Below, piece after piece: positions 1 to 23,260 of a stretch of 64,000 bases of DNA. The DNA lies in contig JAHJJA010000149.1 of assembly GCA_018822885.1 (NCBI GenBank), positions 771-64,770 on the forward strand, given 5' to 3'. The notes below the pieces were generated by a model. The model worked only from the letters and a program-made list of their open reading frames with translations, was not told the origin of the DNA and did not search any database. The DNA comes from Candidatus Omnitrophota bacterium. Its GTDB lineage: Bacteria; Omnitrophota; Gorgyraeia; Gygaellales; Profunditerraquicolaceae. Each line of letters starts with the position of its first letter. Within the stretch, counting starts at the first letter, position 1. The position numbers and the translations under genes were made by a program.

Positions 1-127
1 TTACCTTTGGGTCTATTCTAACAATCCTGTATTTCTTTGGTCTGCCTCGAGCTTGCATTTACTTAACCTTACCTACTTTTAACCCCGTATTTATAATGAG
101 TACATACTCTTTAATAATTATTTTAAA

Positions 128-152
128 GGGCCTGCAAACCGCAGGCCCTTTT
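128..152. terminator. GC-rich hairpin GGGCCTGC-aaacc-GCAGGCCC followed by TTTT on the plus strand and TTTAAAAT on the minus strand. Probably a bidirectional intrinsic terminator, sitting 34 nt downstream of the 186..440 minus-strand gene.
   Basis: Perfect 8-bp inverted repeat with a 5-nt loop and a flanking T-run, read directly. Confidence 0.55.
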
Positions 153-185
153 GTTACCGAAGCAACACACTAATACATACGAAAA

Positions 186-440
186 CTACCTTTTCATCAT
201 CTTCGGCTGATACTTTAAAACGATAGGACAAGGACCTTTTTTGACAGAAAGTTTATAGAACGCCTTTCCAACTATTGTCAATACAGCTAAAGCAATGATC
301 AGAGTCCCTATAGCAAACCCGATACTCCTTAAATTCTTTTCTTCCCTGTTTGCAAAATAAAGAACGATATAGCCTAAAGCAAGAGCTACTAATAAATCCG
401 AGAAACCGGCACCACCCATGCAACCCATCGCCCTCATCAT
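186..440 (-). CDS. Small hydrophobic membrane protein, hypothetical.
   Basis: 84-aa ORF with two predicted TM stretches (LLVALALGYIVLYF, FAIGTLIIALAVLTIVG). No recognisable family. Confidence 0.35.
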   Translation of the reverse strand: MMRAMGCMGGAGFSDLLVALALGYIVLYFANREEKNLRSIGFAIGTLIIALAVLTIVGKAFYKLSVKKGPCPIVLKYQPKMMKR

Positions 441-455
441 CTTCCTCCTCCTTTT

Positions 456-641
456 TTAAATTTCCGTTTCTTTTATTAACTTGCGGTAATACTCAACGCA
501 CTCGTGGCAGGTTTTTCCATCCTTCTTCCATTCCGGATGATCACGCAAGATCAGCTCCATTATATACTCCTCTGCCTTGGCGTGCGCAAGGCTGGCAAAC
601 TCATCAATATCCCGATTGCAAATCTGGCATCTGTATTTCAT
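456..641 (-). CDS. Small zinc-ribbon protein (CxxC ... CxxC). Start taken at the internal Met (MKYRCQICN).
   Basis: CQIC ... CHEC pairs. TAATG stop/start overlap with the upstream 641..826 gene suggests translational coupling. The longer ORF-track start would overlap that gene by 46 nt. Confidence 0.45.
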   Translation of the reverse strand: MKYRCQICNRDIDEFASLAHAKAEEYIMELILRDHPEWKKDGKTCHECVEYYRKLIKETEI

Positions 642-826
642 TATCTTAAGCAATCGCTGCGCCAACAGCAGGCCATCTGAACGCAAACCCCGCTTTTAGG
701 CGTCCCAAAACAAGGATAGTTCCCTTCGACCTTCTGAATAGATTTTATAAGGTCCTTTTTTGAAAATTTCCAGGTATCCTTTACGCCTGCCCCCCTAGCC
801 TTCTTTTCAATCTCTGACAACCTCAT
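641..826 (-). CDS. Small protein with a Rho_N-like (Rho termination factor N-terminal / SAP-like) helix-turn-helix domain and a Cys-rich C-terminus.
   Basis: N-terminus LSEIEKKARGAGVKDTWKFSKKDLIKSIQK resembles the Rho_N motif (L..LR..A..LGI.G.S.M.K.ELI.AI). C-terminus has 5 Cys. Confidence 0.45.
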   Translation of the reverse strand: MRLSEIEKKARGAGVKDTWKFSKKDLIKSIQKVEGNYPCFGTPKSGVCVQMACCWRSDCLR

Positions 827-845
827 CTCTCCCTCCTCCTTTTTG

Positions 846-1232
846 TTATACCTTGCAAACCAAATCGTGCTGCCTGACCCTAGATGCCACTAAAAGACCT
901 ATTTCCTGACCCTTCTTTGCCTCATCTATAATCTCGTGATCTAACTGCATAGAAACTACACCTTGAGTAAAATCAGTAGTGTGCCCTTTAATCTTAATTG
1001 TATCTCCTGCCTTTAAGGGCCCCTTAAGTTTCACCACAGCCGCTCTTACCTTTGGGAAATAATGCGTGATCACCCCAATTACGTTTTCTTTGATACGGGG
1101 CTTCTTCGCAACAGGCTTTTTTACCGGCTTCTTTATTGCTCTTTTCTTAATAGCCGGCTTTTTCTTTATTGACCTCTTAACCGACTTTTTCTTGGCTGCT
1201 TTCTTTATTACCTTCTTCTTTTTTACCGGCAT
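846..1232 (-). CDS. Lysine-rich histone H1-like basic N-terminal tail fused to a small beta-barrel domain resembling EF-Tu/IF2 domain 2.
   Basis: The first about 55 aa are roughly 50% Lys/Arg (KKKKVIKKAAKKKSVKR...). The C-terminus IGVITHYFPKVRAAVVKLKGPLKAGDTIKIKG...EIGLLV matches the G.V..G.i..G..i.i.g domain-2 barrel pattern. Confidence 0.5.
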   Translation of the reverse strand: MPVKKKKVIKKAAKKKSVKRSIKKKPAIKKRAIKKPVKKPVAKKPRIKENVIGVITHYFPKVRAAVVKLKGPLKAGDTIKIKGHTTDFTQGVVSMQLDHEIIDEAKKGQEIGLLVASRVRQHDLVCKV

Positions 1233-1263
1233 TGCAACCCCCCTTCACAAAAAGAATCACCTA

Positions 1264-1590
1264 TTAGAGGCTGATTTTCTCTGCTGCGTTAGAAATCCAG
1301 GGCAAGCCGAAGAAAACGCCTTTATAGGCATTATATGCCCCCAGCAAAGAAACAACTATAAAAATCGCCACGCCAAACACTCTATAGAACCAGCCTAAAG
1401 GCGGCACGATAGAAAAAATAAAACCGACGACTTCAATGACGAAAAGCACCAGGCCCTGCTTGGCGTGATAAAGAACAAATTTATTATCTTTTTTTAAGAG
1501 CAGACTTACAACACAAAGAAAACTTATATATGAAATAACGGCAAAAAATTTGCCTTCCTCTACCTCTTTATTCCTTATAGCCTCTTTCAT
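1264..1590 (-). CDS. DUF4870-like small integral membrane protein.
   Basis: 108 aa, three TM segments, with a KFVLYHAKQGLVLF motif typical of that family. Confidence 0.5.
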   Translation of the reverse strand: MKEAIRNKEVEEGKFFAVISYISFLCVVSLLLKKDNKFVLYHAKQGLVLFVIEVVGFIFSIVPPLGWFYRVFGVAIFIVVSLLGAYNAYKGVFFGLPWISNAAEKISL

Positions 1591-1602
1591 TTAAAGGAGT
1601 TC

Positions 1603-2706
1603 TTAAGCTGTTTTCTTGCTCGCTACCTCAAGCAAAGAATCCATTTGGCCGTAAGGATTCATTTCACTCAAAGGATTTCCTGAATCTTCGGTCCATTTGC
1701 CATCTATAACAAAACGATAGTGATACCTTCCTTTGGCAAGATTTACACTCTTTCTCCATGTACCGTTATCCGCTTTTTCCATGCGGCCGGAATCGCCTAG
1801 CTGCCAGTTGTTAAAATCACCGGCAACATATACCTCTTTGGCATCAGGGGCAGAGATTGAAAGCACCACTTCAGAGAGCCTGGGCAGTTTCTCTTTGATC
1901 ATTTCCGACATCTTTTTTTCAAGCTTCTTCGTCGTAACTTCTACAGCCGGTTCATCCATCATGATCATTTCACGGGAAAGGCTGAAGTAATCTTTTGCGC
2001 CGCGGCAATATTTATCAAAGTTTAAGATATGCGTGCCTTCATTCTGGGCCTCTTTAAGCTTGACATTCACGTGGATAATATTACTAAAGAGCTTTCCCGC
2101 GAAGGTAGCCTTTATCTTATCCAGCATCTTAAAAGAATGCCTTAGGCGGGAATCAAAGTTAGTCACCAGTATTTTATATTTCACCTCGTGAGAAAGCCTG
2201 TCTCTTACCAGCTCGATTATTCCTACTAACTGACCCAAGCCTTCAAGAGAGAATCTGCTAGCCTCAACAGGAATGATTATCTCCCTGCTTGCGCGGATCG
2301 CATTGATAGTCAAGATGCCTAGATTCGGGGGGCAATCAATAAGGACATAATCATAACTGCCCTTAAAACCATTCAAGACTTCCCAAAGACGGGATTCCCT
2401 TCCGATTTCTCCGGAAAGCTCCTGCTCAAGAGTACTTAATATAATACTTGAAGGCGCAATATCAAAATTTGCGCCGATATTCTGGATTATATTCTCAAGG
2501 CGGGCTTTTTTATTTGTAAGCTTTGAAAGGACATTATAGATGCTAAACTCGGATTTGATGTTGAGCCCTAAAGTCGCGTGAGACTGCGGATCAAGGTCTA
2601 TTAATAGGATCTTCTTGCCGTTTACTGCCAGATTTGCCGCCAGATTTATTGCAGTAGTAGTCTTACCGCATCCACCCTTTTGATTCGTGATGGAAATAAT
2701 GCGCAT
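1603..2706 (-). CDS. ParA/MinD-family P-loop ATPase fused to a C-terminal CBM48 (AMPK-beta-type) glycogen-binding domain.
   Basis: N-terminus MRIISITNQKGGCGKTTTAINLAANLA (deviant Walker A) followed by a ParA fold. C-terminus VYVAGDFNNWQLGDSGRMEKADNGTWRKSVNLAKGRYHYRFVIDGKWTEDSGNP matches the CBM48/AMPK1_CBM signature. Confidence 0.85.
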   Translation of the reverse strand: MRIISITNQKGGCGKTTTAINLAANLAVNGKKILLIDLDPQSHATLGLNIKSEFSIYNVLSKLTNKKARLENIIQNIGANFDIAPSSIILSTLEQELSGEIGRESRLWEVLNGFKGSYDYVLIDCPPNLGILTINAIRASREIIIPVEASRFSLEGLGQLVGIIELVRDRLSHEVKYKILVTNFDSRLRHSFKMLDKIKATFAGKLFSNIIHVNVKLKEAQNEGTHILNFDKYCRGAKDYFSLSREMIMMDEPAVEVTTKKLEKKMSEMIKEKLPRLSEVVLSISAPDAKEVYVAGDFNNWQLGDSGRMEKADNGTWRKSVNLAKGRYHYRFVIDGKWTEDSGNPLSEMNPYGQMDSLLEVASKKTA

Positions 2707-2724
2707 AAAGATACTCCTTTCTTT

Positions 2725-3288
2725 TTACTTCAATAATCTCACGTTGTCTATGTAAACTACACCCTTCTTCTCTCTTGCGTTCCACTCCTCAACGGCAAAA
2801 GAAAGGTTCTCCATCTGTGACCAGTCGCTGATCCCCTTAAACTGAGACAAGTCTATTTTGTAATCAGTCCATTTATGAGGAATATTCCTAAAATAGACTT
2901 CTGATTTCTCCCTGTAATTACTGGTAAACTCGACGCGTAAAGTAATGTTATCCTGAAAATTGGCTTTCTTCACAGCAAAACCTACTTTGCTGTAACGGCT
3001 GACATCCAGTTTATTTAAATTAAGGGTAAAGATTTCTTTTTTGGCGGGATCGAAATTAAAATTTATCTTCAGGGCTTCGGGGGCCAATATAAGCTCTACT
3101 TCTTTGTTAAGAGATCTATTTTTCGGAACAAAAAAAACCAGTGTCGTGCCTAAACCGAATAAAAAGATCAAAGCGCCCGTAAAAATATTCTTTATGAGTA
3201 CTGAATCGACCTTAGATTTATTATCTTTTTTTGAAGAGGCATCCAGATAGATCTTCGCCAGATGCTCGTATATATCTTTCTTATCCAT
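2725..3288 (-). CDS. Membrane-anchored hypothetical protein with one N-proximal TM and a beta-sandwich (CBM-like?) C-terminal domain. Co-operonic with the GH57 and ParA-CBM48 genes.
   Basis: TM IFTGALIFLFGLGTTLVFFV. C-terminal ...EEWNAREKKGVVYIDNVRLLK resembles the terminal strand of carbohydrate-binding beta-sandwiches. Gaps of 18 and 65 bp to its neighbours. Confidence 0.5.
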   Translation of the reverse strand: MDKKDIYEHLAKIYLDASSKKDNKSKVDSVLIKNIFTGALIFLFGLGTTLVFFVPKNRSLNKEVELILAPEALKINFNFDPAKKEIFTLNLNKLDVSRYSKVGFAVKKANFQDNITLRVEFTSNYREKSEVYFRNIPHKWTDYKIDLSQFKGISDWSQMENLSFAVEEWNAREKKGVVYIDNVRLLK

Positions 3289-3353
3289 ATCGGAATTTTA
3301 TAACACAAAACCCTTGTTATGTCAATAGGTTATTGACTTATTAAAAGAATTTC

Positions 3354-4925
3354 TTATTCGATGGGCCTTTGTAAATACTCCGGGGTTTCTTTACCTATAA
3401 TATTGTAGAAATTTGACATATGGACCCGAAACAACCTATCGAAACTACCTCCCGGATCTTCACCATACCACCAAAACCAATCGCTTCCCTCTAGTATATG
3501 CATCTGCTTCCACGCCAAACTTAAGTCCTTACCTGCCCCAAGTTTATCGAAGGGTGAGTTTGCAACCTCCTCCAATTCTTTCCTTGCCTTGGCTAAATAC
3601 TCCCATGCGCGCACCTTTTGGGGCATCCCGATCCATTTACCGAAATCTCCGAAAATCCATGAACCGGCAGCAAGCCTTTTAATATTAAACTGTGGCGGAA
3701 ATTCTTTAAGATACTCGCTAACAGTTACGGATTTAATATTCCTGGATTCCGATAATCCCTGATAAAGCGCATTTAAGAAATCATGCCCGTCATTCGCGTA
3801 ATATTCCCAGGCATTCTCTCCATCCATAGCGATAGTGACAAGGCTGTCTTCATCCTTAAACGCCTTTGCCGTATTCTCCAAATGCTTGATGAAATCCTTC
3901 GCCGCATCATTCGGGTCCCATTTATGATAAACAAAACCTATTAAATCAGAAAGGTTCCTATCGCGAAAAATTATATTTAATTCTCCATCTTTTCTTTTTA
4001 ATAAATGCGGCTGATAAAGTAGGCCCGTATCCCGCTTCTTTCTCCTCAATGATTTAAAAAGGATGGCCTCATCCGTGACTATCCACTTGATGCCGCATTG
4101 CATAAAAAACGGGAGTATCTCTTCGCATACAGACTCCTCCGATGGCCACATACCGCAAGGCATAATTCCAAACCTCTGTTTATAAAACTCAACCGCGCTC
4201 TCAACTTGTTCTTTTGCATCCTGGGGAAAAGAAAATTCTATTCTCGGCAAGAGTGTCTTAGGATTAGCCTCCTTCGCCAGGTTAGTGCTGTAGAGTAATG
4301 GTAAAATAGGATGATAATACGGAGTAACCGAGACTTCGATCTGCCCCTTTTTAATCGATCTATTGTAACCGGGAATTATATCTTTTAGAATCTCAAGGTG
4401 CTTATCAAGGACAGCATGCTTTTCATCTTCGGTGAAATAACGCGCCTTTCTTACTGCGTTTCGTAACTCCGGAAAGCCCTCCCTGAAAGACGGGTCGATC
4501 CAGGCTAAATTAAATAATACCTGCAGATCAAGATAGTCCTGCGTATCGAATTGACAATGGCCTTGTTTTTTAAAATACAGTTCATAATAACGAGGAAAAA
4601 CGGAAACGACTTTATCAGGGTTGATTGAAAAGAAATTTTGCAGGATAAATTCTTTCTCCTGATAAGAGAGCTCTTCTGCTTTCTTATAAGAGAACTCTAA
4701 AAACTTATCTTTTACGGCGTGATTATTATAATCCTCTATCTGTTCGAATAAAGACGGGACAATATTAAAGGTCTGATGTATCGCGGGATAATTATCAAGG
4801 ATCTGCACCATATCCAGGTAATCCTTGACTCCGTGAAGCCGCACCCAAGGAAGCTCTGACTCCTGCGTCAGGATATTCTTGTAATACGGCTGGTGCATGT
4901 GGAAGATAAATGCGAGATATAACAT
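3354..4925 (-). CDS. Glycoside hydrolase family 57 alpha-glucan-active enzyme (AmyC-like alpha-amylase / 4-alpha-glucanotransferase type).
   Basis: N-terminal LYLAFIFHMHQPYY ... WVRLHGVKDY is the GH57 HxHQP signature. 523 aa is a typical length. Confidence 0.8.
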   Translation of the reverse strand: MLYLAFIFHMHQPYYKNILTQESELPWVRLHGVKDYLDMVQILDNYPAIHQTFNIVPSLFEQIEDYNNHAVKDKFLEFSYKKAEELSYQEKEFILQNFFSINPDKVVSVFPRYYELYFKKQGHCQFDTQDYLDLQVLFNLAWIDPSFREGFPELRNAVRKARYFTEDEKHAVLDKHLEILKDIIPGYNRSIKKGQIEVSVTPYYHPILPLLYSTNLAKEANPKTLLPRIEFSFPQDAKEQVESAVEFYKQRFGIMPCGMWPSEESVCEEILPFFMQCGIKWIVTDEAILFKSLRRKKRDTGLLYQPHLLKRKDGELNIIFRDRNLSDLIGFVYHKWDPNDAAKDFIKHLENTAKAFKDEDSLVTIAMDGENAWEYYANDGHDFLNALYQGLSESRNIKSVTVSEYLKEFPPQFNIKRLAAGSWIFGDFGKWIGMPQKVRAWEYLAKARKELEEVANSPFDKLGAGKDLSLAWKQMHILEGSDWFWWYGEDPGGSFDRLFRVHMSNFYNIIGKETPEYLQRPIE

Positions 4926-4927
4926 TT

Positions 4928-4964
4928 ATAAAAAAACCCCCGGGAGATTTCTCTCCCGAGGGTC
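4928..4964 (-). terminator. Intrinsic terminator for the outer-membrane-protein gene. On the minus strand the hairpin CCCTCGGGAGAGAAATCTCCCGGGGG is followed by TTTTTTT.
   Basis: Stem-loop plus T7 tract read directly. The T-tract runs straight into the GH57 ATG at 4925. Confidence 0.6.
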
Positions 4965-4984
4965 TTTGTTTTTACATGAACTGC

Positions 4985-6340
4985 TTAGAAAGTAACCTTC
5001 ATTGAACCAACTAATTCGGTAGCAACGCTTCTGTTTCCGTGATCAGTGCAATCCTGCTTATCGAATGCGCCACCCGGCATAAATATGCCGCCTAAGAGGT
5101 TGAACTGCACATCTTCAGTGTAATCATAAGTCAATGTGGCATCGATTTCCGAGCCGACATATTTTTTATGATTCATTGTGATGGTATCGCCTCTTAATGT
5201 TTGGAGTACCTGTTTGTCACCGTATTTCTTATCCCACCAATAGGCAAAATACTCGCCTTTTACGGTAAGATCGTCCTTAGGCTTGAATACGACGTTTCCG
5301 CCTAATACGTGCGCATTGCTTTGAGGAATCAATGCATTGGCAATGTCACCGGTTTTCTGGTCCTCAAACATCGGATCCCAACCTCTGTAGTAATTCTTGT
5401 TACCCTTGTTTCCCTGGAAGAAGCAATAAATACCAGTGACGGTCGGGCTGTACTTTACATTCTTCAGGTTATAAGAAACCATAACCTCGCCGCCAAAAGC
5501 CCCTCTTGACTGAACATCAGTCTTTGAAAGAGCGCCGGTGTTGTACTTACCAAGCTGATAAGCTGCTTCGACTGAATAGGTCAATGCATCAAGCGGTGCA
5601 CCTGCTATACGCACGCCGGGAACAATGACTTTGTCAGACTTGCTGTGTCCGGAAGCAACCTGATAATTCTTTTTTCTTGTTTCTTTTGCCCAGACATAAC
5701 CTTCGATTGTGGTCTTTTTATCAAGCATGTAATTAGCGTTGATACCATAAAGGTTGATGTCATCGTTATTGTTAAGTACTTTTTCGCTAACCTTAGCCAG
5801 TACAACATCAATGACTAAAGGATCATAGTTCAATGTAGCACGGACCGCGTCAAATGACTTGCGAGTGCTAAGATCCCAATCGCGTCCTGCACCACCAAAT
5901 GCGCTGGAGGTAGGTGCGGATTCAGGAAATGATGTTCCAATGATCATAGCATTTCCGAAACGAAGCTCCTGGCGACCGATAGTCAAGGTCAAAGGTGAAT
6001 ACAGGAACTCTTTCAATGTCGCATAGGCTAAATCGATATCGATCTTGGAGTTATTTGTTGTAGCATCATCATCCTGATTACCCCAATATCTGTCGTTTAA
6101 AAGCCTTACGGTTGTAGACACATTGTCAGTAAGGTCTGCATCAACTCTTACGCGGACAATGCTTGCGAAAGCTCTCTCATCCTTAAGACCAGCCTTTGAA
6201 TCTAAACCAAAGTTATTGCGAGCGATGCCGTACATGTTCAAATCACCGCTAACTTTAACATTCTGCACTTCGGCGTATGCGGCAAAAGCAATACCGACCA
6301 CAAACGCTAAGGCCAGAACTAACATTAAATGTTTCTTCAT
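4985..6340 (-). CDS. Outer-membrane beta-barrel protein (porin-like) with a signal peptide.
   Basis: Signal peptide MKKHLMLVLALAFVVGIAFAAYA. Alternating amphipathic strands. C-terminal ...SMKVTF ends in Phe, as OMP barrels typically do. Confidence 0.6.
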   Translation of the reverse strand: MKKHLMLVLALAFVVGIAFAAYAEVQNVKVSGDLNMYGIARNNFGLDSKAGLKDERAFASIVRVRVDADLTDNVSTTVRLLNDRYWGNQDDDATTNNSKIDIDLAYATLKEFLYSPLTLTIGRQELRFGNAMIIGTSFPESAPTSSAFGGAGRDWDLSTRKSFDAVRATLNYDPLVIDVVLAKVSEKVLNNNDDINLYGINANYMLDKKTTIEGYVWAKETRKKNYQVASGHSKSDKVIVPGVRIAGAPLDALTYSVEAAYQLGKYNTGALSKTDVQSRGAFGGEVMVSYNLKNVKYSPTVTGIYCFFQGNKGNKNYYRGWDPMFEDQKTGDIANALIPQSNAHVLGGNVVFKPKDDLTVKGEYFAYWWDKKYGDKQVLQTLRGDTITMNHKKYVGSEIDATLTYDYTEDVQFNLLGGIFMPGGAFDKQDCTDHGNRSVATELVGSMKVTF

Positions 6341-6565
6341 TTTGTCTAACCTCCTTAAGAGTAAAATACCAAACTATATTTAACTAGGCTTTCAATGTCC
6401 TAGATAATTACTATATATAGTATATCACCGGATCTTGGCTGACCTTGGACTTGTTTTTATCCTCACCCTCCTCTCCGTCCGAGATTAAAGTCATCTCCAG
6501 TGGTATATCCAAATTTGACTTATTTTTTCACATAACCCCTTACTTGTCAAGAGTTTTTTTAGAAA

Positions 6566-7771
6566 TTACTTTTTAAGCGCCTCTTTGAATTTCCTGGTTA
6601 AAGCAGGAATAACCTGGAAAAGGTCACCGACAATGCCATAAGTAGCTACCTTAAAAATAGGCGCGTCAGGGTCCTTATTTATGGCAATGATGATTTTTGA
6701 GGATTGCATACCCACCAAATGTTGGATTTGGCCTGAAATACCGCAGGCAAAGTAGATCTTAGGAGAAACGGTACGTCCGGTTTGACCGACTTGATGCGAA
6801 TAAGGCATCCAGCCGGAATCTACTGCCGCGCGGGAAGCACCAACCGCAGCGCCCAAAACATGGGCAAATTCTTCCAAAAGCTTAAAGTTTTCAGGACAAC
6901 CAATGCCCCGGCCCCCGGAAACAATGATATCTGCCTCCGCTATATTCACCAGAGACTCAATCTCTTCTACTATATCTAAAAGCTTTGTGCGTGAAAAATA
7001 AACTGAATTATTAAAACTTTCTTTGATGATCTTACCCTTACGATGTTTGTCCGGGGCCATCGGCTGGAAAACTTTATGGCGGACCGTAGCCATCTGTGGC
7101 CGGTAATTCGGGCTGATGATTGTTGCCATGATATTTCCGCCAAAAGCAGGCCGTGTCTGTAAAAGAATCTTTTTTTCAGGATCGATATCTAAACCGGTAC
7201 AATCAGCGGTCAAGCCGGCTTTGATATTTATCGCAACGCGAGAGATCAAAGAACGGCCAATAGCGGTTGCGCCGCATAAAAGGATCTCCGGCTTATATTT
7301 CTTTACTAACTCTACTAAAATATTCGTATAAGGCTCATCCTGAAAATTCGCTATCTCCGGAGCCTCTACCAAATAGATATTATCCGCGCCATGCCAAATC
7401 AATTCATCAAGCTGATCTTCCATATTATTACCGATCAGAACACCGCTGACCTGGCAATTCAATTTCCTGGCTAATTCCTGCGCCTTGCCCAAAAGCTCAT
7501 AAGAGACCGATTGGACCTTGCCGTTTTTTTGCTCAATAAAAACCCATATACCTTTATAATCTTTAATATTCGGCAATTCGCACTTTGCCGGGGTCTTCTC
7601 TAAAAGGATAGCCTTGAATTTACATGCCGGCACACAAGCGCCGCAAAGGGTGCATTTATTAAGGTCTATCTGCGCCTTCTTGTCCATAATACGAATAGCA
7701 TCAAACGGACAAGCCTTGACGCAAAGAGTGCACCCGGTGCATTTTTCGATTATGATCTGGATAGACATCAA
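6566..7771 (-). CDS. etfA: Electron-transfer flavoprotein alpha subunit with an N-terminal 2x[4Fe-4S] ferredoxin domain.
   Basis: [12 protein letters not shown] and [12 protein letters not shown] motifs, then an EtfA/FixB fold and a C-terminal FAD-binding region. Confidence 0.85.
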
Positions 7772-8550
7772 TGAACCTCGTCTTTAATCAAGCTTACCAA
7801 TTTCTCGGCTACTTCAGGGATCTCTCCCGACAAGATCTGTCCGCCAGCCCTCTGGGGAGGAGTAAAAATCTTTACCACCTGCGTCGGGGAACCGCACAAA
7901 CCAATACTCTGCGGATCTAAATTAAGCTCCTTCTGTGTCCACACGGTTATCTTGGCTGATTTTGCCTTCATCATACCTTTCAAAGAAGGAAGCCGCGGTT
8001 CATTTATCTCTTTGACCACGGTCAATAGCGCAGGCAAAGGGATTTCAATTACCTCGTAGCCTTCCTCCATCAGTCTCTCCACACGCATAGTCTTATCCTT
8101 TACCTCTTCCACCTTTTTTACATAAGTAACTTGGGGGATGTCTAAATGAGTTGAAATACCTGGCCCAACCTGCGCGGTATCGCCGTCTGAAGCCTGTTTT
8201 CCGCAAATAATCAAATCAAATTCGCCCAGCTTCTTAATAGCTCCGGATAAAGTGTAGCTTGTGGCCCAAGTATCACTTCCGGCAAATGCGCGATCGCCCA
8301 CAAGTACTGCCTCGTCACAACCAAGTGAGATCGCTTCGCGTAAAGCTGCTTCTGCCTGAGGCGGACCCATCGTAAGAACAGTGACCTTGCCTCCGAATTT
8401 CTCCTTAAGCCGCACCCCCTCCTCTATCGCGTACATATCAAAAGGGTTTATTATAGATTTTACTCCCTCGCGGATAAGTGTGTTTGTCTCTGGATTGATC
8501 CGGACTTCGGTAGTCTCTGGGACCTGCTTTATGCAGACGATTATATTCAT
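7768..8550 (-). CDS. etfB: Electron-transfer flavoprotein beta subunit.
   Basis: MNIIVCIKQVPETTEVRINPETNTL... is the typical EtfB/FixA N-terminus. ATGA overlap with etfA. Confidence 0.85.
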   Translation of the reverse strand: MNIIVCIKQVPETTEVRINPETNTLIREGVKSIINPFDMYAIEEGVRLKEKFGGKVTVLTMGPPQAEAALREAISLGCDEAVLVGDRAFAGSDTWATSYTLSGAIKKLGEFDLIICGKQASDGDTAQVGPGISTHLDIPQVTYVKKVEEVKDKTMRVERLMEEGYEVIEIPLPALLTVVKEINEPRLPSLKGMMKAKSAKITVWTQKELNLDPQSIGLCGSPTQVVKIFTPPQRAGGQILSGEIPEVAEKLVSLIKDEVH

Positions 8551-8551
8551 G

Positions 8552-9703
8552 CTACTTCGCCATCTCCTTAATTAACTGCAAGGCAATAATGTTTCTCTGG
8601 ACTTGATTTGTACCCTCGTAGATCTGGGTGATTTTTGCGTCGCGCACATACTTCTCAATAGGATAATCTTTCATGTAGCCGTAGCCACCGAAAATCTGAA
8701 GAGCATCCACTGTCACTTTCATCGCTACATCAGATGCATACATCTTTGCCATGGCTGAATCCTTAGACACATCCTTGACTCCTGCATCAACAGCACGCGC
8801 GCAGGCATAAACTAACGCCCTTGCAGCCTCGATTTCTGTCGCCATATCTGCCATCATCCACTGTATTCCTTGAAAAGAAGAAATCGATTTGCCAAACTGA
8901 TGGCGCTCTTTTGCGTATTTGACCGCTAACTCAAGAGCTCCCTGGGCAATACCCAAAGCCTGCGCAGCTACTCCGGGACGGGACATATCAAAGGTCTTCA
9001 TAGTGACAATAAAACCCATACCTTCCCTTGAGAGCAGATTCTCTGCAGGCACTTTACAATCAGTAAAAACCAACTCACTTGTGGAAGAAGCGCGGATCCC
9101 GAATTTATCCTCTTTCTTTCCAAAGGTAAAACCCTTCATGCCCTTTTCAACGATAAATGCTGAAGCGCCGCGGGCACCCTTAGTTTTATCAGTCATTGCG
9201 ATCACTACATAGGTTTCGGCATCGCCGCCGTTTGTAATAAAATGCTTCAACCCGTTTAGCACATAGTGATTGCCTTCTTTTCTTGCAGTAGTCTTAATAG
9301 CAGAAGCATCAGAACCTGCTTCAGGTTCAGTGATACCGAAAGCCGCGACCTTTTTACCGCTGGCTAAATCAGGCAGATATTTCTTTTTCTGGGCATCGCT
9401 TCCAAAAAGAACAATAGGAAACGTCCCTAAAGCTGAAGCCGCATAGCAAACCGCGATACCGCCGCAGGCCCGAGAAAGCTCTTCCGTAGCAAGACACAGA
9501 TTTAAAACTCCTACACTCATCCCTCCGTACTCTTCGGGAATAAACAATCCAAATAACCCCGCGTCAGCAATTATCTTTAAAACTTCCCAGGGATACTCTT
9601 CTGTCTTATCATATTTAGCCGCGACTGGACGAATCTTTTCCTCTGCGATCTTATGCGACAACTCTTTGATCATCTTTTGTTCATCAGTCAATAAGTAATC
9701 CAT
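8552..9703 (-). CDS. Acyl-CoA dehydrogenase (butyryl-CoA dehydrogenase-like).
   Basis: 383 aa with ACAD N-terminal, middle and C-terminal domain signatures. Immediately upstream of etfBA. Confidence 0.85.
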   Translation of the reverse strand: MDYLLTDEQKMIKELSHKIAEEKIRPVAAKYDKTEEYPWEVLKIIADAGLFGLFIPEEYGGMSVGVLNLCLATEELSRACGGIAVCYAASALGTFPIVLFGSDAQKKKYLPDLASGKKVAAFGITEPEAGSDASAIKTTARKEGNHYVLNGLKHFITNGGDAETYVVIAMTDKTKGARGASAFIVEKGMKGFTFGKKEDKFGIRASSTSELVFTDCKVPAENLLSREGMGFIVTMKTFDMSRPGVAAQALGIAQGALELAVKYAKERHQFGKSISSFQGIQWMMADMATEIEAARALVYACARAVDAGVKDVSKDSAMAKMYASDVAMKVTVDALQIFGGYGYMKDYPIEKYVRDAKITQIYEGTNQVQRNIIALQLIKEMAK

Positions 9704-9810
9704 TGCGCCTCCATTTTTAACTTTATTCTAAAACCTACCCACAACCTAAGGCATATTTAGTGTGCCCTTTGTTATTGGTGATTTTAAAATTTTACCATAA
9801 TAATTATTTT

Positions 9811-10260
9811 TTACAATAATTTTAATAAAGCGATCTCCTGGCAGTTGGGGAATTTGCAGCACTTAATACATTCAACCCAGATTTTATGCGGCAACTCGGC
9901 ATTCTTAATCCTCTTAAAACCGAGTCTCTTAAAGAAGTCAGGTTTATAGGTGAGAACAAAAGCCCGTTTAACGCCCATCTCTTTTGCCTCATTCAGGCAG
10001 GTCAAGACCAATTCCTTTCCTATGCCCTTGCGCTGTTTGTTTTTTGCTACCGCAAGCGATTTGATCTCGGCCAGATCATCCCATGATATGTGTAAGGCCG
10101 CGCAGCCGATGACTTTCTTAGCCTCAACGTAGACCCAAAAATCCCTCAAGTTTTCATACAACTCATTCAACGAACGCGCAAGCATCAGATCCTGCTTAGC
10201 AAAAGCATTGATAAGTTTCTGAATTTGCTTTATATCTTCAATCTTAGCTTTTCTAATCAC
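9811..10260 (-). CDS. GNAT-family N-acetyltransferase (short N-acetylglutamate-synthase-like).
   Basis: 149 aa with an acetyl-CoA-binding motif QRKGIGKELV. Confidence 0.7.
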   Translation of the reverse strand: MIRKAKIEDIKQIQKLINAFAKQDLMLARSLNELYENLRDFWVYVEAKKVIGCAALHISWDDLAEIKSLAVAKNKQRKGIGKELVLTCLNEAKEMGVKRAFVLTYKPDFFKRLGFKRIKNAELPHKIWVECIKCCKFPNCQEIALLKLL

Positions 10261-11483
10261 TTAATCTCCGTCCCTTTCGCTACAACGACAATTCCCGAAT
10301 CAGAAACCACGAATTTTTTCCTATCCTCTTCCAGATCATAGCCAATGACCATCCCCTGCGGGATATTAACACCCTTATCGATGATCGCGCGCTTTATCTT
10401 GGCGTACCGGCCGACATTAACGCCTTCCATGATTATGGAATCATAGACCTCGGAATAGCTATTGATCCTCACATCAGGAGACAAAATAGAGCGCTGGATC
10501 CTGCCGCCGCTGACTACACACCCTCCCGCGACTATAGAATCAAGCGCAAGCCCAACCCTTCCCGCGATAACATCTCCCGAGTGCACAGTTTTTGCCGGAG
10601 GAAACTGCTCTTGATAAGTCCTGACCGGCCACTCCTGATCATAAAGATTAAAGATCGGTTCAGCCTGGATAAGATCCATATTCGCTTCAAAATAGGCATC
10701 AATAGTCCCGATATCACGCCAGTATTTTGCCTGTTTCTTATTTTCATCGTGAAAATTATAAACGCGGATCTTCATGCCTTTTTTAAGCATTTGCGGGATT
10801 ATATTCTTTCCGAAATCATGGTTAGAATCTGTTTTTCTGGCGTCCTCTCGCAGTTCCTGTTTAAGGGCCGACGTCTTAAAAACATAGATACCCATTGAAG
10901 CATAGAACTTATCGGGCTTTCCCGGGATCGTATTAGGTTTTGCCGGCTTCTCCTGAAACCCGGTAACGCAACCAAGCTTATCAACCTCCACAATACCAAA
11001 CTGCTTAGAATCAGCCTTATCCATTTCAACGACGCTGACTGTCAGATCCGCGTCCTGATCACGGTGGAAATCTATCATTGAATAATAATTCATCTTGTAA
11101 ACATGGTCACCGGCCAAAATCAAAACCTCATCCGGCTCTTCTGTGTCAACCGTATAAAGATTCTGATAAATCGCATCGGCAGTCCCCAGATACCAGGAAT
11201 CCCCGATCCTCTGCTGAGCAGGTAACAACTCAATATACTGGCCCAACTCCGAAGGGAGTATATTCCAGCCGAGGCGAATATGCCTCTGCAAAGACTCCGA
11301 CTTATACTGCGTCAGAAGAAAAATCCTGCGCAATCCGGAATTAATACAGTTACTAAGAGTAAAATCTATAATACGGTAAATCCCTCCAAAAGGGACCGCC
11401 GGCTTTGTCCTATCGCGAGTCAAAGGATTCAAACGCTCCCCCTTGCCGCCGGCCATAATAAAAGTCAAGACTTTGCGCATCAT
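10257..11483 (-). CDS. glgC: Glucose-1-phosphate adenylyltransferase (ADP-glucose pyrophosphorylase).
   Basis: FIMAGGKGERLNPLTRDRTKPAVPFGG signature. Start moved to the internal ATG at 11483, which forms an ATGA overlap with the marC-like stop. Confidence 0.85.
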   Translation of the reverse strand: MMRKVLTFIMAGGKGERLNPLTRDRTKPAVPFGGIYRIIDFTLSNCINSGLRRIFLLTQYKSESLQRHIRLGWNILPSELGQYIELLPAQQRIGDSWYLGTADAIYQNLYTVDTEEPDEVLILAGDHVYKMNYYSMIDFHRDQDADLTVSVVEMDKADSKQFGIVEVDKLGCVTGFQEKPAKPNTIPGKPDKFYASMGIYVFKTSALKQELREDARKTDSNHDFGKNIIPQMLKKGMKIRVYNFHDENKKQAKYWRDIGTIDAYFEANMDLIQAEPIFNLYDQEWPVRTYQEQFPPAKTVHSGDVIAGRVGLALDSIVAGGCVVSGGRIQRSILSPDVRINSYSEVYDSIIMEGVNVGRYAKIKRAIIDKGVNIPQGMVIGYDLEEDRKKFVVSDSGIVVVAKGTEIK

Positions 11484-12076
11484 CTTAAAATCACCCCCAT
11501 TATTCCGCGACGGATCATCATCGCTGCGATTGCAGCTAGAAGTATATACATGATCTTGGCGAATGCGCGAGTGCCGCTTACGCCCATTAATTTCATTATA
11601 TGATCTGCCTTGGACAGGCAAAGCCAGACAAATAACATGTTAGTCACCAAAGAAACAAAAGTCGCCCCTACCCCGTAAGTATCCAACATCATCAGGGTAG
11701 TCGTTAAGACCGCCGGACCGGTGATCAAAGGCGTACCCAGCGGAACAACCCCCACCTCTTTATCCGGCGAGCCTAAAACCCTGGCATGCGAAGAAGGAAG
11801 AAGTAGTCTGGCCGCAATAACAAACAAAAGCACGCCGCCGGCTATCTGAAAATCCTGTATAGTAATACCCAACAGGCTCAATACTAACTTACCCACGAAC
11901 ATAAAAGCTACCGCAACTCCAGTAGCAGTAAAAACAGTCTGTAAGATGATCCTGTGCTTTTCCTTCTTAGTCGTCCCGTGCACAAGCGAAACAAACAAAG
12001 GAAGATTGCCGATCGCATCAACCGCCACAAAGATCGGGATGAATGTAAGTAGGTATGGCTTCAATATGTTAAGCAT
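11480..12076 (-). CDS. MarC-family (UPF0056) integral membrane protein.
   Basis: 198 aa, six TM segments, N-terminal LLTFIPIFVAVDAIGNLPLF motif. Confidence 0.75.
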   Translation of the reverse strand: MLNILKPYLLTFIPIFVAVDAIGNLPLFVSLVHGTTKKEKHRIILQTVFTATGVAVAFMFVGKLVLSLLGITIQDFQIAGGVLLFVIAARLLLPSSHARVLGSPDKEVGVVPLGTPLITGPAVLTTTLMMLDTYGVGATFVSLVTNMLFVWLCLSKADHIMKLMGVSGTRAFAKIMYILLAAIAAMMIRRGIMGVILR

Positions 12077-12123
12077 AATTTTAAATTATACTACTTTCAC
12101 TCTCTATCTTCAAGAAATAAATA

Positions 12124-12150
12124 TCAAGACCGGTCTTGACCTTACTTATT
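12124..12150. repeat. Partial copy of the AAGACC(C)GGTCTTGAC palindromic REP-like element, with a perfect 16-nt palindrome TCAAGACCGGTCTTGA.
   Basis: Matches the first half of the 48-bp elements at 31429..31480 and 33781..33840. Lies just downstream of the MFS gene stop. Confidence 0.5.
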
Positions 12151-13312
12151 TCTCCTGCGGAGAATCTTTAATCCTGCTGATCAAAGGCAGACACAAAAAA
12201 CTGGTCAAGCTGGACAAGACAATAAGCCATTTCAACCCGATCCTCGGCAGCAAAAACGCCCCTGATAAGTTGCTGGCGGTAAGCGCTAGATTACTCACGC
12301 TGCAAAGCAAAGCAAAAGAGGTAGCTTCTAAACCACTAATGGTGTTACGGGCCATAAAGTCCATTACCATTAAAAAGATAAACATCCCTATTAAACTGTA
12401 TATCAGATCATAAACCACCGCGGTATAGGGGGTATAATAAAGGTAACTTAAGGTAGTGACAGCGCCTAAAAACACGGAAAAGAAAAGCCATTTCTTGATA
12501 TTTATTCTTTGGCTGAATTTATAATACATCACGGAACCGATGATACCAAAGACCGTTCCGATAGTAGCCAGCCAGCCGATCCAAACCTTGCTCCACTTAA
12601 AAGCATCCCTCTGAATAAAGAAAAGCGGGGTGCCGAAGGAAGGAGAAAACTTATATAGAAAAATGAATAACCCGATTACAAGCAATTCCTTGTGGGCGAA
12701 TAATTTCTTTAGGTCCTTTAAGAGCGTCGATGGGGCTTTTATCCCCTGATAATCCTCCTCTTTATAAAAGAAAGCGCAAGCCCCGACGAGAATATAAACC
12801 GGGATCAAGCCTAAGAATGCCGCTTTATACCCCCATTTTTCCGCTATATAACCTCCCCCTACTCCGGTAATCAAGCCGGATACATAAATAGAGATCCACT
12901 GTACGCTCTGGATTTTTCCGGTGGCCTTGTATTTCTTACCCTCCATGCACATGATCCCGTCTACTGCCACATCCCTAAAAGCAGAATTGGTGGAGTTTAA
13001 CAGTAAAAAGGTCACCAATAAAACGATAGGCAGGGAAAATATACCTAAAAATGAAACTAAGGCAATGTCTCCGGCTAAAGCGATATATATCCAGATCTTC
13101 TTATTGAAAAAATTATCTATGATGTAGCCGATTATAGGTTTTACAAGCCAGGCCATTATGACGATGCTGTTAATGACCATGATCTTTTCAGGAGAGAAGT
13201 TTAGTGTTTCTTTCATATAATAAAACAACCCCTGCGAAGGCAGGCCTTCAATCCCCTGGGTAAAATATACCGCGCTGCTTAACGCGAAGATCCAGAATAG
13301 TTTTTTATTCAC
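12146..13312 (-). CDS. MFS-type transporter (folate/biopterin-transporter-like), GTG start.
   Basis: 388 aa, about 12 TM segments. The MFS assignment is approximate. Confidence 0.6.
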   Translation of the reverse strand: MNKKLFWIFALSSAVYFTQGIEGLPSQGLFYYMKETLNFSPEKIMVINSIVIMAWLVKPIIGYIIDNFFNKKIWIYIALAGDIALVSFLGIFSLPIVLLVTFLLLNSTNSAFRDVAVDGIMCMEGKKYKATGKIQSVQWISIYVSGLITGVGGGYIAEKWGYKAAFLGLIPVYILVGACAFFYKEEDYQGIKAPSTLLKDLKKLFAHKELLVIGLFIFLYKFSPSFGTPLFFIQRDAFKWSKVWIGWLATIGTVFGIIGSVMYYKFSQRINIKKWLFFSVFLGAVTTLSYLYYTPYTAVVYDLIYSLIGMFIFLMVMDFMARNTISGLEATSFALLCSVSNLALTASNLSGAFLLPRIGLKWLIVLSSLTSFLCLPLISRIKDSPQEK

Positions 13313-13360
13313 CCAGCCCTTCTTTCCCTATTACTATCCCAGCCCGTAAGAAGGGCTGGG
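13312..13360 (-). promoter_or_regulatory. 5' leader with mutually exclusive hairpins. The local hairpin CCCAGCCC/GGGCTGGG competes with a 13-bp pairing that sequesters the SD and GTG start of the MFS gene.
   Basis: CCCAGCCCTTCTT (13312..13324) is the reverse complement of AAGAAGGGCTGGG (13348..13360). CCCAGCCC (13338..13345) pairs locally with GGGCTGGG (13353..13360). Confidence 0.3.
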
Positions 13361-13430
13361 TACACCAAAATAAAAAAAGACTATCGCACCTTAGCGAGTA
13401 GCCTTTTTATAAAGTTAACCTGACATTAAA

Positions 13431-13823
13431 TTATTTTGTTTGATTTACCGGCATTTCCTGTTTTAGGGCTTCTGTTTTAACAACCCCCTCTACTTGCTTT
13501 GCAGCCTCTTTAACTGTCTGATTCACTGCCGGTTCAGTAAGCGGCCTTACCCCTTTTGCAGCCACTGGCTTTGCCTGGACATCCTTCATCAGCGAGCGGC
13601 TCTGGCGTACCGATAAAACCGCCAGGCTTAAGCAGGTAAAGAAAAATATTACAGAAAGCACGGTAGTAGCTCGCGTGAGAAGAACGCTTGTCTTTGTCCC
13701 GAACATCGACTCAACACCCTGAAAACTCTCGACCAGACCGCTGCCTCTTCCCCTCTGTATTAACACTATAACGATCAGGCCAAAACACACAATCACATGG
13801 ATTATTATCACGAACATCATCAT
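13431..13823 (-). CDS. secG: Preprotein translocase subunit SecG.
   Basis: N-terminal TM followed by LIQRGRGSGL... FG motif. Conserved position downstream of tpiA. Confidence 0.7.
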   Translation of the reverse strand: MMMFVIIIHVIVCFGLIVIVLIQRGRGSGLVESFQGVESMFGTKTSVLLTRATTVLSVIFFFTCLSLAVLSVRQSRSLMKDVQAKPVAAKGVRPLTEPAVNQTVKEAAKQVEGVVKTEALKQEMPVNQTK

Positions 13824-14587
13824 TTTGTTACCTCATTGGCTTTCTTTACTATATCCACAAAACTCTCAACTTTAAGGCTGGCTCCCCCGACCAAAGCTCC
13901 ATCCACATCAGCCTTCTTCATCAAATCAACAATATTCTCCGGTTTTACGCTTCCCCCGTATTGGATCCTTATACTCTGCGCAATATCAACGCCATATAGC
14001 CTCACCAACAAATCGCGTATATACTTATGCGCCTCTTGCGCCTGCTCGGGAGTTGCCGTCTTTCCCGTGCCAATAGCCCAAACCGGCTCATAAGCAATGA
14101 TTAACTTTTGCGCCTCTTCGGCAGTAATATCCTTTAGGCCGTTAAGGACATGGTCCTCTAAGACTTTAAAGGTGAGGCCCTTTTCCCTCTCGGCGAGCAT
14201 CTCCCCCACGCACATAATAGGAGTCAAATCATACGACAAAGCAGCTTTGACTTTTTTATTTACTGTTTCATTAGTCTCATTAAAAAACTGCCTGCGCTCA
14301 GAGTGGCCTATAATAACGAATTTACAGCCCGCATCCTTAAGCATTTTTCCGGAAACCTCACCCGTAAAAGCCCCCTCATCCTGCCAGTAAAGATCCTGGC
14401 CACCCAGAAGGATATTACTGGTTTCCAAAGCATCAGCCAGATATCCCAGCAATGTAAAGGGCGGACAGATCACCACCTCCGTATCTTCTATCTGAAAAAG
14501 CTCTCTCCTTAAGGCAACCGCTAACTCCTGTCCGTCCTTAAGGGTCTTGTACATCTTCCAGTTTCCGGCAATAATAGTTTTTCGCAT
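13820..14587 (-). CDS. tpiA: Triosephosphate isomerase.
   Basis: IIAGNWKMYKT ... IIGHSERR ... AYEPVWAIGTGKTAT signatures. Confidence 0.9.
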   Translation of the reverse strand: MRKTIIAGNWKMYKTLKDGQELAVALRRELFQIEDTEVVICPPFTLLGYLADALETSNILLGGQDLYWQDEGAFTGEVSGKMLKDAGCKFVIIGHSERRQFFNETNETVNKKVKAALSYDLTPIMCVGEMLAEREKGLTFKVLEDHVLNGLKDITAEEAQKLIIAYEPVWAIGTGKTATPEQAQEAHKYIRDLLVRLYGVDIAQSIRIQYGGSVKPENIVDLMKKADVDGALVGGASLKVESFVDIVKKANEVTK

Positions 14588-14588
14588 A

Positions 14589-15770: not shown

Positions 15771-15873
15771 TCTTAAGCCTCCGTTATGAAGTTTAAAATA
15801 TATCTCAAATTCAGGCCTTTGTCAATAACTCATTTTCAAAATAATGGGCCTGGTTTCCTGTTTTTCCTTAAAG

Positions 15874-16611
15874 TTAATATTTGACTTTGACAAGGCATAG
15901 CCCCCGAGCAGGAGCCGTGGGGCCGGCCAATCCCCTATCCTTAGAACGCAATATCCTGATTAAGTCTCCCTTGGTAAATCTGCCCCTGCCTATTTCCAGA
16001 AGCGTTCCCACGATATTTCTCGCCATATTATAAAGAAATCCATCTGCCTCGAGCTGAAACTCTATTAAGTCCCCATCCTTATCGATCCTGATTCTTTTTA
16101 TAGTCTTAAAGGGGTTTCTTTCCGTCTTGTCGGCTGCCTGAAAGGCCTTAAAATTATGCCTGCCCAAGAGGCATTTTGCCTCCTGCCTCATAAGCCTTAG
16201 ATTTAACGGGAAAGAAAATAAATGCGACCTATTCCTTAGAAAAGCGCTAGAATAAGAACGATTTAGAACCATATAACGGTAAATCTTTGATTTGGCGCTA
16301 AAACGCGAGTGGAAATCAACCGGAACTTCCTTTACTTTAGAAACTACGATATCCTTCGGGAGGAAAGTATTCAGGGCCAACTGTAACTTATTAAGAGGTA
16401 TACTGGAACCAGTCTTAAAATTAGCGACTTGGGCTTCGGCATGGACCCCTGCGTCCGTCCTGCCGGAAACAATTAAACTGACTTTTTCCCGCAGGATCTT
16501 CTTAAGGGCTTTCTCTATCGTTGCCTGTATTGATTTACCGCTATCCTGCACCTGCCAGCCGCAATAATTTGTCCCGTCGTATTCTATCTCGAGCCTGATA
16601 TTGCGACTCAA
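15874..16611 (-). CDS. truA: tRNA pseudouridine(38-40) synthase.
   Basis: IEYDGTNYCGWQVQ ... SGRTDAGVHA motifs. Confidence 0.85.
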   Translation of the reverse strand: MSRNIRLEIEYDGTNYCGWQVQDSGKSIQATIEKALKKILREKVSLIVSGRTDAGVHAEAQVANFKTGSSIPLNKLQLALNTFLPKDIVVSKVKEVPVDFHSRFSAKSKIYRYMVLNRSYSSAFLRNRSHLFSFPLNLRLMRQEAKCLLGRHNFKAFQAADKTERNPFKTIKRIRIDKDGDLIEFQLEADGFLYNMARNIVGTLLEIGRGRFTKGDLIRILRSKDRGLAGPTAPARGLCLVKVKY

Positions 16612-18688: not shown

Positions 18689-18700
18689 GATCTCTCCTAT

Positions 18701-20889: not shown

Positions 20890-20902
20890 TTTTTGGCTTA
20901 GG

Positions 20903-22150: not shown

Positions 22151-22187
22151 GTCTAAAATTGGTTTTTTGATTTAAATGCCAATTACT

Positions 22188-23250: not shown

Positions 23251-23260
23251 AGTTTCACCT

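Follow-up and report, generated by a model that had tools for sequence, protein, structure and literature searches.

Results

Layout of the locus

A 64,000-nucleotide stretch of Candidatus Omnitrophota DNA (contig JAHJJA010000149.1; hereafter the window) carries on its minus strand a gene for a 367-residue protein, which we call ParA-CBM48. In this protein a ParA/Soj-type ATPase is fused to a C-terminal carbohydrate-binding module of the type found in the beta subunit of AMPK (CBM48). Directly upstream of it lies the gene for p187, a membrane protein of 187 residues and the candidate partner of the ATPase. The two genes belong to six closely spaced minus-strand genes (window 846..6340), which run porin, GH57, p187, ParA-CBM48, p108 and p128 with intergenic gaps of 59, 65, 18, 12 and 31 bp (Table 1). 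An earlier reading of this DNA from its letters only (the sequence-only reading) had described GH57, p187 and the fusion as minus-strand genes separated by 65 and 18 bp, and all of these open reading frames (ORFs) were found again in the same places.

Table 1. Features of the ParA-CBM48 locus, in window coordinates
Feature	Position	Strand	Basis
ParA-CBM48 fusion gene, 367 residues	1603..2706	-	ORF; Pfam AAA_31 + AMPK1_CBM
ParA/Soj-type ATPase domain, residues 1-250	1957..2706	-	invariant motifs, matches to Soj/ParA structures
Flexible linker (putative), residues 251-277	1876..1956	-	low pLDDT, poor conservation
AMPK-beta-type CBM48, residues 278-364	1615..1875	-	Pfam, phmmer, confident AF2 model
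Shine-Dalgarno sequence AAGGAG before the ParA-CBM48 start codon	2714..2719	-	read in the sequence
p187, single-pass membrane protein, 187 residues, candidate ParA partner	2725..3288	-	adjacency to the fusion
p187 N-terminal peptide, predicted cytoplasmic, residues 1-17, MDKKDIYEHLAKIYLDA	3238..3288	-	conservation in 78 homologs
p187 transmembrane helix, about residues 34-54	3127..3189	-	hydropathy, charge bias
p187 beta-jelly-roll, CBM-fold domain, predicted periplasmic, residues 65-187	2728..3096	-	predicted fold and topology
Sigma-70-type promoter TTGACA-N17-TATAAA with extended -10 TG	3297..3325	-	8 nt before the p187 ATG
GH57 amylopullulanase-like enzyme, 523 residues, accessory neighbour, cytoplasmic	3354..4925	-	Pfam GH57, 213 bits
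Outer-membrane porin, 451 residues, Alginate_exp-type barrel, signal peptide	4985..6340	-	Pfam Alginate_exp, 81 bits
p108, small multi-pass membrane protein, 108 residues	1264..1590	-	ORF, hydrophobic segments
p128, Lys-rich tail and EF-Tu-domain-2-like beta-barrel, 128 residues	846..1232	-	ORF, residue counts, weak profile matches

A Soj-like ATPase with intact catalytic motifs

The N-terminal half of ParA-CBM48 matched Pfam AAA_31/ParA over residues 1-176 (181.5 bits, cut-off 27) and also CbiA (69.7 bits). Among solved structures, its first 250 residues were closest in sequence to the chromosomal ParA/Soj proteins (ParA 8ray, 1.6e-49 to 3.7e-49; TtSoj 1wcv, 3.8e-39; HpSoj 6iub/8jmj), with which it shares the fold (Foldseek template-modelling scores of 0.75-0.79), intact Walker motifs and, for the Soj structures, 37-41% identity. 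McdA was much more distant (6non, 2e-12). The AlphaFold2 (AF2) model of the whole fusion, built on a shallow alignment, was poor in the ParA half and confident only in the carbohydrate-binding module (CBM).

We aligned 82 members of the ParA-CBM48 family, of which 81 could be scored at the CBM positions. The deviant Walker A motif N8-Q-K10-G-G-C13-G-K15-T-T, including its signature lysine K10, the P-loop K15 and T17, was invariant at these residues (82/82), and T16 was kept in 81 members. The aspartates D37 and D39 of Walker A' (D39 aligns with D41 of HpSoj) and D124 of Walker B were likewise present in every member, as the sequence-only reading had expected. The cysteine C13 (KGGCGKT), which that reading had singled out as unusual, stands where chromosomal Soj has Val and was found in all 82 members, making it a signature of the family. 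Two other cysteines are also well conserved, namely C125 in the DCPP motif of Walker B (79/82) and C234, which is conserved to at least 90% among 41 close relatives. The cysteine in the P-loop could render the ATPase redox-sensitive. Since the catalytic residues are all intact, ParA-CBM48 should be a catalytically competent Soj-like ParA, predicted to bind ATP, to form the ATP-dependent sandwich dimer and to hydrolyse the nucleotide.

The DNA-binding surface is another matter. HpSoj contacts DNA with K199, K227, K230 and K247 (PMC6393308), and these residues align to F192, V213 (V, I or T in the family), K216 (K or R in 81/82) and Y233, so that the equivalents of K227 and K247, among others, are non-basic. 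According to Corrales-Guerrero et al., the most widely conserved DNA-binding residues are those at R195 and R224 of CcParA (PMC7229837). To judge by spacing, these probably correspond to R187 and K216 of the fusion. R187 is invariant (82/82) and presumably the equivalent of R189 of B. subtilis Soj, the Soj sequence that we assumed for this mapping having the right length and an arginine at position 189. Additional basic residues are conserved at K218 and K232 (80/82 each) and at R235 and K238 (82/82 each), and the DNA/ATP loop, PRNVR in Soj, reads HVNVK. Thus, of the basic DNA-binding residues anticipated for this half, R187 and K216 were there and the counterparts of HpSoj K199, K227 and K247 were not.

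Membership in the BcsQ or bacterial tyrosine kinase (BY-kinase) families was ruled out, because the scores fell far below the cut-offs (BcsQ, 65 against 158 bits; TIGR01007/eps_fam, 46 against 108; the Wzc models similarly) and the C-terminal Tyr cluster is missing, with one Tyr in the last 25 residues.

The genomic surroundings of the fusion were surveyed by tblastn of the window proteins against 83 fetched loci, 1.26 Mb of flanking sequence in total. Neither a ParB box (GERRxRA) nor a second ParA-type Walker A was found in the window or in these flanks. In contrast to the chromosomal ParABS systems, no ParB or parS-type partner lies near the fusion, and the candidate partner is a membrane protein. 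Within the window and the 83 loci, ParA-CBM48 is therefore an orphan ParA.

These results bear on the idea that ParA-CBM48 is a segregation or division ATPase like Soj, MipZ or PomZ, with CBM48 serving as a regulatory glycogen sensor as in AMPK beta. Such a sensor of energy reserves would couple the cell cycle to the carbon store or sequester the ATPase on glycogen. It would fit the closeness to chromosomal Soj/ParA, the two retained residues of the DNA patch (R187 and K216), the regulatory role of AMPK-type CBMs in eukaryotes (PMC7393401) and a phylum-wide conservation at 48-76% identity that resembles that of a housekeeping gene. On the other hand, half of the basic residues that contact DNA are replaced, no parAB arrangement was seen in the loci, and the tight and universal pairing with a membrane protein, described below, is unexpected for a Soj. 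We regard this explanation as unlikely.

The linker and the CBM48 module

Residues 252-275 were modelled with low confidence in the predicted local distance difference test (pLDDT). In the homologs the region aligned to residues 247-286 is poorly conserved and varies from 19 to 102 residues, and such a variable, low-confidence segment has the signature of a flexible tether.

The C-terminal half scored above the Pfam cut-offs with both AMPK1_CBM (PF16561; residues 288-364, 47.9 bits against 26.8) and CBM_48 (PF02922; 28.6 bits against 22.4). Its last 85-90 or so residues matched the CBM of AMPK beta1 (1z0n) at 3.5e-9 in phmmer, and the AMPK-beta/CBM48 module of the sequence-only reading was confirmed in this way. 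AF2 modelled the domain as a beta-sandwich with a pLDDT of about 90. A Foldseek search with the whole-fusion model returned ParA matches only, with no structural match for the CBM; the CBM48 assignment rests on the sequence evidence together with the confident beta-sandwich model.

The binding of AMPK to glycogen needs the tryptophan pair W100 and W133 of beta1 (PMC7393401). In the alignment with 1z0n this pair is shared by the fusion as W301 (FNNW) and W338 (DGKW), and both residues were kept in 81/81 family members, as were W317 and N350. The AMPK beta CBMs (1z0n, 4yef) differ from the bacterial module in being carried on a kinase scaffold and not on a P-loop ATPase. They differ also at the positions that we take to be equivalent to K126 and N150 of beta1, where the family has R, Q or K (position 331) and D or N, respectively. 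The CBM48 domain thus appears to have the residues required for alpha-glucan binding, and we infer from them that it binds such a polymer.

Alternatively, the module may be CBM48-like in fold only and recognise a protein or a non-glucan ligand, so that the system would be unrelated to glycogen. The variation at position 331 is in line with this, and some CBM48 modules, for example in branching and debranching enzymes, are not proven glycan binders. However, the best sequence matches are specifically to the glycogen-binding CBMs of AMPK beta, and both sugar-stacking tryptophans are retained throughout the family along with W317 and N350. This makes a ligand other than glucan very improbable in our view.

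Reality and spread of the fusion

The sequence-only reading had asked for an assembly chimera to be excluded and for the fusion to be sought in related genomes. A protein identical to ParA-CBM48 is on record from a metagenome-assembled genome of Candidatus Omnitrophica, and more than 120 clusters (90% identity) span the fusion end to end at 68-76% identity, all of them with PF16561 and many from contigs 0.2-0.9 Mb long. When GTDB was scanned with one genome for each species, at least 584 matches were confirmed by tblastn; the best 80 of them, which we examined, were all full-length fusions at 48-74% identity, with titles all pointing to Omnitrophota, although some of the records bear the name 'uncultured Planctomycetales'. 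The genomes with a full-length fusion include the complete chromosome of Ca. Velamenicoccus archaeovorus LiM, whose ortholog matched AMPK1_CBM at 61.7 bits. An assembly chimera is ruled out by the occurrence of the full-length fusion in these clusters and in 80 independent genomes, one of them a closed chromosome. The fusion is found throughout the phylum, and in the databases it goes only by the names 'AAA family ATPase' or 'chromosome partitioning protein'.

Many records titled 'uncultured Planctomycetales/Planctomycetia bacterium' hold the full Omnitrophota module at 50-74% identity (e.g. the fetched loci L010, L011, L014, L016, L017, L028, L029, L034 and L038, and others), and these titles are probably taxonomic mislabels. 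Fusions outside Omnitrophota were sought by an exhaustive HMMER search with the C-terminal 116 residues, and its top 150 matches were tandem-CBM48 proteins and a few short single-domain fragments. These best-scoring relatives of the CBM in a library of 1.8 billion proteins (P0241-P0390) carry 2-18 tandem CBM48/AMPK-CBM-like repeats. A large group of them is about 470-490 residues long with four repeats, and there are giants of 1812 residues (18 matched stretches) and 6207 residues (16).

The candidate membrane partner p187

In 75 of 76 loci the gene for p187 immediately precedes the fusion, at a median gap of about 27 nt; the denominators of this and the following neighbour counts differ because they are the loci assessable for each gene. 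We found 1011 homologs of p187, with every named match from Omnitrophota. The protein matches no Pfam or NCBIfam model and belongs to no CAZy or Pfam CBM family. In its AF2 model (pLDDT 85) the C-terminal domain adopts a beta-jelly-roll fold like that of CBM11, CBM8 and CBM30, and the top structural matches, of low root-mean-square deviation, show 13-21% identity to it.

Topology and conservation were examined in 78 homologs. The transmembrane helix has a median hydropathy of 2.2, and K+R residues are in excess on its N-terminal side in 73 of the 78 (median counts of 6 before the helix and 2 after it). This positive-inside bias predicts a cytoplasmic N-terminus and a periplasmic CBM-fold domain. 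A periplasmic domain cannot bind cytoplasmic glycogen, so only the N-terminal peptide could reach the ParA. Hence the single transmembrane segment and the CBM-like C-terminus of the sequence-only reading both held, but the domain is predicted to lie on the other side of the membrane from the glycogen.

The first 17 residues are the best conserved part of p187, with a mean consensus frequency of 0.73, whereas the sandwich reaches 0.53 and the transmembrane helix 0.33. They follow the motif M-x-[KR]-x-[DE]-I-Y-[DE]-H-L-A-x-[IV]-Y-L, in which position 3 is basic, position 6 aliphatic and position 11 Ala in all 78 homologs, while Y7 occurs in 73 and H9 in 76. Partner proteins of ParA/MinD ATPases act via positively charged N-termini (PMC10241942). 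In the structure of HpParA with DNA and HpParB(1-10), the peptide MAKNKVLGRG makes its contacts through K3, V6, L7 and R9 (PMC11229316), and these are the positions occupied in p187 by K/R3, I6, Y7 and H9. The correspondence is suggestive of a ParB-type ParA-binding peptide at the N-terminus of p187, which we treat as a candidate.

Promoter before p187 and the conserved gene pair

The 65-bp spacer between GH57 and p187 carries a near-consensus promoter, TTGACA and TATAAA separated by 17 nt and with an upstream TG. Together with the spacer motif TTTTGTGyTATAAA it is conserved ahead of p187 in most GH57-clade loci (L001-L048), usually 7-14 nt from the start codon (27 loci in which the pattern fell within 15 nt). 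The p187 ATG has no Shine-Dalgarno sequence, and that before the ParA-CBM48 start is strong. The closeness of the promoter to the start and the lack of a Shine-Dalgarno sequence imply a leaderless or near-leaderless p187 mRNA. A generic scan for promoters and terminators gave counts no higher than on shuffled sequence and missed the p187 promoter on account of the A at the end of its -10 hexamer.

With a conserved promoter in front of p187, GH57 is a separately regulated neighbour and not a demonstrated operon partner, which makes its description as co-operonic doubtful. Of 60 loci assessable for GH57, 32 have the gene upstream of the fusion, namely 28 of 30 relatives at 62% identity or more and 4 of 30 below. 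The gene glgC, which the sequence-only reading had pointed out nearby, does lie in the window (10257..11621), but in none of the 83 other loci did it come within 10 kb of the fusion, and etf genes likewise never recur there. A GH57/p187/ParA operon with glgC was accordingly rejected as a conserved unit; the proximity of glgC in the window is coincidental and GH57 is restricted to a lineage.

The conserved functional pair is instead p187 and ParA-CBM48, since p187 stays adjacent where the other neighbours vary. The pair is mostly flanked by the porin upstream (46/50 loci) and by p128 downstream (61/67), and p108 separates the fusion from p128 in 55 of 80. In Velamenicoccus (L051 11094..11992), nitroreductase and OsmC-like genes replace p108 between the fusion and the p128 homolog, and p187 is still adjacent.

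Neighbouring genes

The GH57 protein matched the amylopullulanase AaApu of Aquifex aeolicus (8zyi/9jlq) over its full length at about 1e-85. AaApu is an endo-acting enzyme that hydrolyses glycogen (PMC12106739). The two enzymes share the five conserved regions (in the window protein HMHQP at 9, GQIEV at 194, WPSEES with E263, DGENAW with D368 and EGSDW at 479) and the catalytic Glu/Asp dyad, E263 and D368 aligning with E256 and D352 of AaApu. The window enzyme is about 45 residues longer and begins directly with the catalytic domain, and so is cytoplasmic. It resembles an amylopullulanase and is predicted to cleave glycogen.

An enzyme of this kind next to the fusion might suggest a static scaffold, on which ParA-CBM48 recruits GH57 and other enzymes to glycogen or gates access to the polymer by ATP-dependent dimerisation, with no positioning at all. 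The adjacency of an amylopullulanase-like GH57 in nearly all closer relatives would agree with this, and a bivalent CBM dimer could gate access to a polymer. However, the enzyme is found in only four of the 30 distant relatives and a promoter stands in between; moreover, a scaffold leaves the universal membrane partner unexplained. We think such a scaffold quite improbable.

The porin gave a partial match to NCBIfam DESULF_POR1 in addition to the barrel family in Table 1. Its conservation upstream of the fusion, together with a CBM11/8/30-like domain of p187 that would face the periplasm, raises another possibility, namely an envelope-spanning complex of the porin, p187 and ParA-CBM48 that links the import (or export) of maltodextrin or alpha-glucan with cytoplasmic glycogen, with the ParA as an assembly or localisation factor like BcsQ. 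ParA/MinD relatives of the BcsQ type serve polysaccharide machines (the Pfam match to BcsQ was 1.2e-8), and a predatory or parasitic life with uptake of material from the host has been proposed for Omnitrophota (PMC10066038). However, the conserved block contains no transporter, synthase or glycosyltransferase gene, the porin matches a generic barrel family, and the ATPase is far nearer to Soj than to BcsQ or the BY-kinases and lacks their C-terminal Tyr cluster. An envelope complex of this sort is distinctly unlikely in our estimate.

Of the two small genes downstream, p108 has an ortholog in L001 with a weak Pfam flag for MamF/MmsF, a magnetosome membrane protein family. The N-terminal tail of p128 has 25 K+R and no D/E within 48 residues, like histone H1, and is followed by the beta-barrel; a profile search against the PDB gave weak matches to domain 2 of EF-Tu/eIF5B only. 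The search for relatives of p128 was filled by Omnitrophota proteins annotated as 'translation elongation factor-like protein' or 'putative protease'. Possible roles of p128 are those of a nucleoid-associated protein and of a second partner of the ParA.

Elsewhere in the window are housekeeping genes and a cluster for glycosylation. Nearly all genes in 1..64000 are on the minus strand, and the GC skew is negative in almost every 500-base bin across the first 12 kb profiled, which is consistent with the minus strand being the leading strand of a single replichore. One ORF of 718 residues (31600..33756), without a Pfam match at E<=1e-5, is on the plus strand, opposite to nearly all the others. 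The glycosylation cluster (50496..63387, minus strand) consists of a Polysacc_synt flippase, several GT2 and GT4 glycosyltransferases, a methyltransferase, two radical-SAM enzymes (one B12-binding, one SPASM) and an 858-residue STT3-type oligosaccharyltransferase, and suggests protein glycosylation in this Omnitrophota genome. tRNA and Rfam scans found no tRNA or Rfam RNA gene anywhere in the 64 kb.

Discussion

We propose, tentatively, that p187 and ParA-CBM48 form an ATP-switched tether or positioning device for glycogen. Positioning of glycogen granules, as the sequence-only reading had proposed, remains the leading hypothesis, with the binding of glycogen, the contact between p187 and ParA, the matrix used and the physiological outcome being the parts that we infer. 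In this model, the ATP-bound dimer of ParA-CBM48 would display a pair of flexibly tethered CBM48 modules and grip the alpha-glucan, glycogen, bivalently. Stimulation of hydrolysis would come from p187, anchored in the membrane, whose cytoplasmic peptide would bind the dimer in the manner of the ParB, McdB and MinE N-termini, so that ParA-CBM48 would cycle between a glycogen-bound dimer, which might also sit on DNA or membrane, and a monomer. The usual arrangement would then be inverted, with the cargo module on the ATPase and the activator fixed in the envelope. As an outcome, the few glycogen particles of very small cells might be distributed or anchored relative to the membrane, the nucleoid or both, and the purpose might be that both daughters inherit reserves or that storage is localised at the envelope. 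That ParA-CBM48 is an adaptor-less ParA which partitions the storage polymer, with dimers carrying glycogen directly and the membrane peptide of p187 resetting them, seems rather doubtful to us, if still worth considering. Omnitrophota genomes reconstructed from metagenomes commonly encode glycogen synthesis (PMC8542988). In E. coli, where no such system exists, glycogen inheritance is passive and asymmetric (PMC12706056).

Several points weigh against positioning. The Soj DNA patch appears half kept, with R187 and K216 only, so that binding to the nucleoid, and with it positioning there, is possible but uncertain. A function in the envelope, rather than at granules, is hinted at by the conservation of the porin and by the predicted periplasmic location of the CBM-fold domain in p187. 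In 28 of 60 loci the cluster lacks GH57, and genes for glycogen synthesis are not linked to the pair. The likeness of p187 to ParB lies in a short motif and could be chance, and the Lys-rich p128 is an alternative partner. Moreover, most Omnitrophota cells are ultra-small (PMC10066038), which leaves little space for positioning.

As proposed here, ParA-CBM48 would join McdA/McdB, PpfA, ParC and PomZ as a ParA-family ATPase for cytoplasmic cargo other than DNA. As in McdAB, the product of the neighbouring gene, here the candidate partner, has a charged N-terminus (PMC10241942). In contrast to McdAB and the like, where the adaptor is on the cargo and the ATPase on the nucleoid, the cargo module is here on the ATPase and the putative activator in the membrane. 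Indeed the only predicted cytoplasmic cargo-binding module, CBM48, belongs to the ATPase and not to its partner. The cargo would be a polysaccharide, which is unreported for the ParA positioning family. On the other hand, BcsQ and the BY-kinases (Wzc, CapAB) belong to the same P-loop superfamily and combine membrane partners with polysaccharides, and a small transmembrane protein that activates a cytoplasmic ATPase recalls CapA/CapB. They differ from the present system in their sequence models, their Tyr cluster and their linkage to synthase or exporter genes, which are missing from the conserved block.

The sequence-only reading knew of no such system. In agreement with this, our full-text literature searches turned up no paper that connects a ParA-type ATPase with glycogen, a 2024 review of the ParA/MinD family does not mention glycogen, granules or storage, and the fusion is absent from the papers on Omnitrophota genomes. 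The system is thus apparently undescribed, and it would add both a new cargo class and a new architecture to the ParA positioning paradigm.

Finally, ParA/MinD ATPases are general organisers of the bacterial interior, with DNA, carboxysomes, chemoreceptor arrays, flagella and the divisome as known cargos, each of them reached through a separate adaptor protein. The passive placement of glycogen in E. coli has consequences for cell asymmetry (PMC12706056). A built-in glycogen-binding module names its own cargo, so that an active organisation of glycogen becomes directly testable, and E. coli, itself a glycogen maker, can serve as the expression host for the proteins. If our proposal is true, the pair would be the first active machinery for segregating or positioning glycogen in any bacterium, and ParA-CBM48 the first ParA with a built-in cargo module and with an activator located in the envelope rather than on the cargo. 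The two-part design, an ATPase with its cargo module and a short activator peptide, could serve synthetic positioning systems, and the genes provide a functional marker set for the biology of Omnitrophota.

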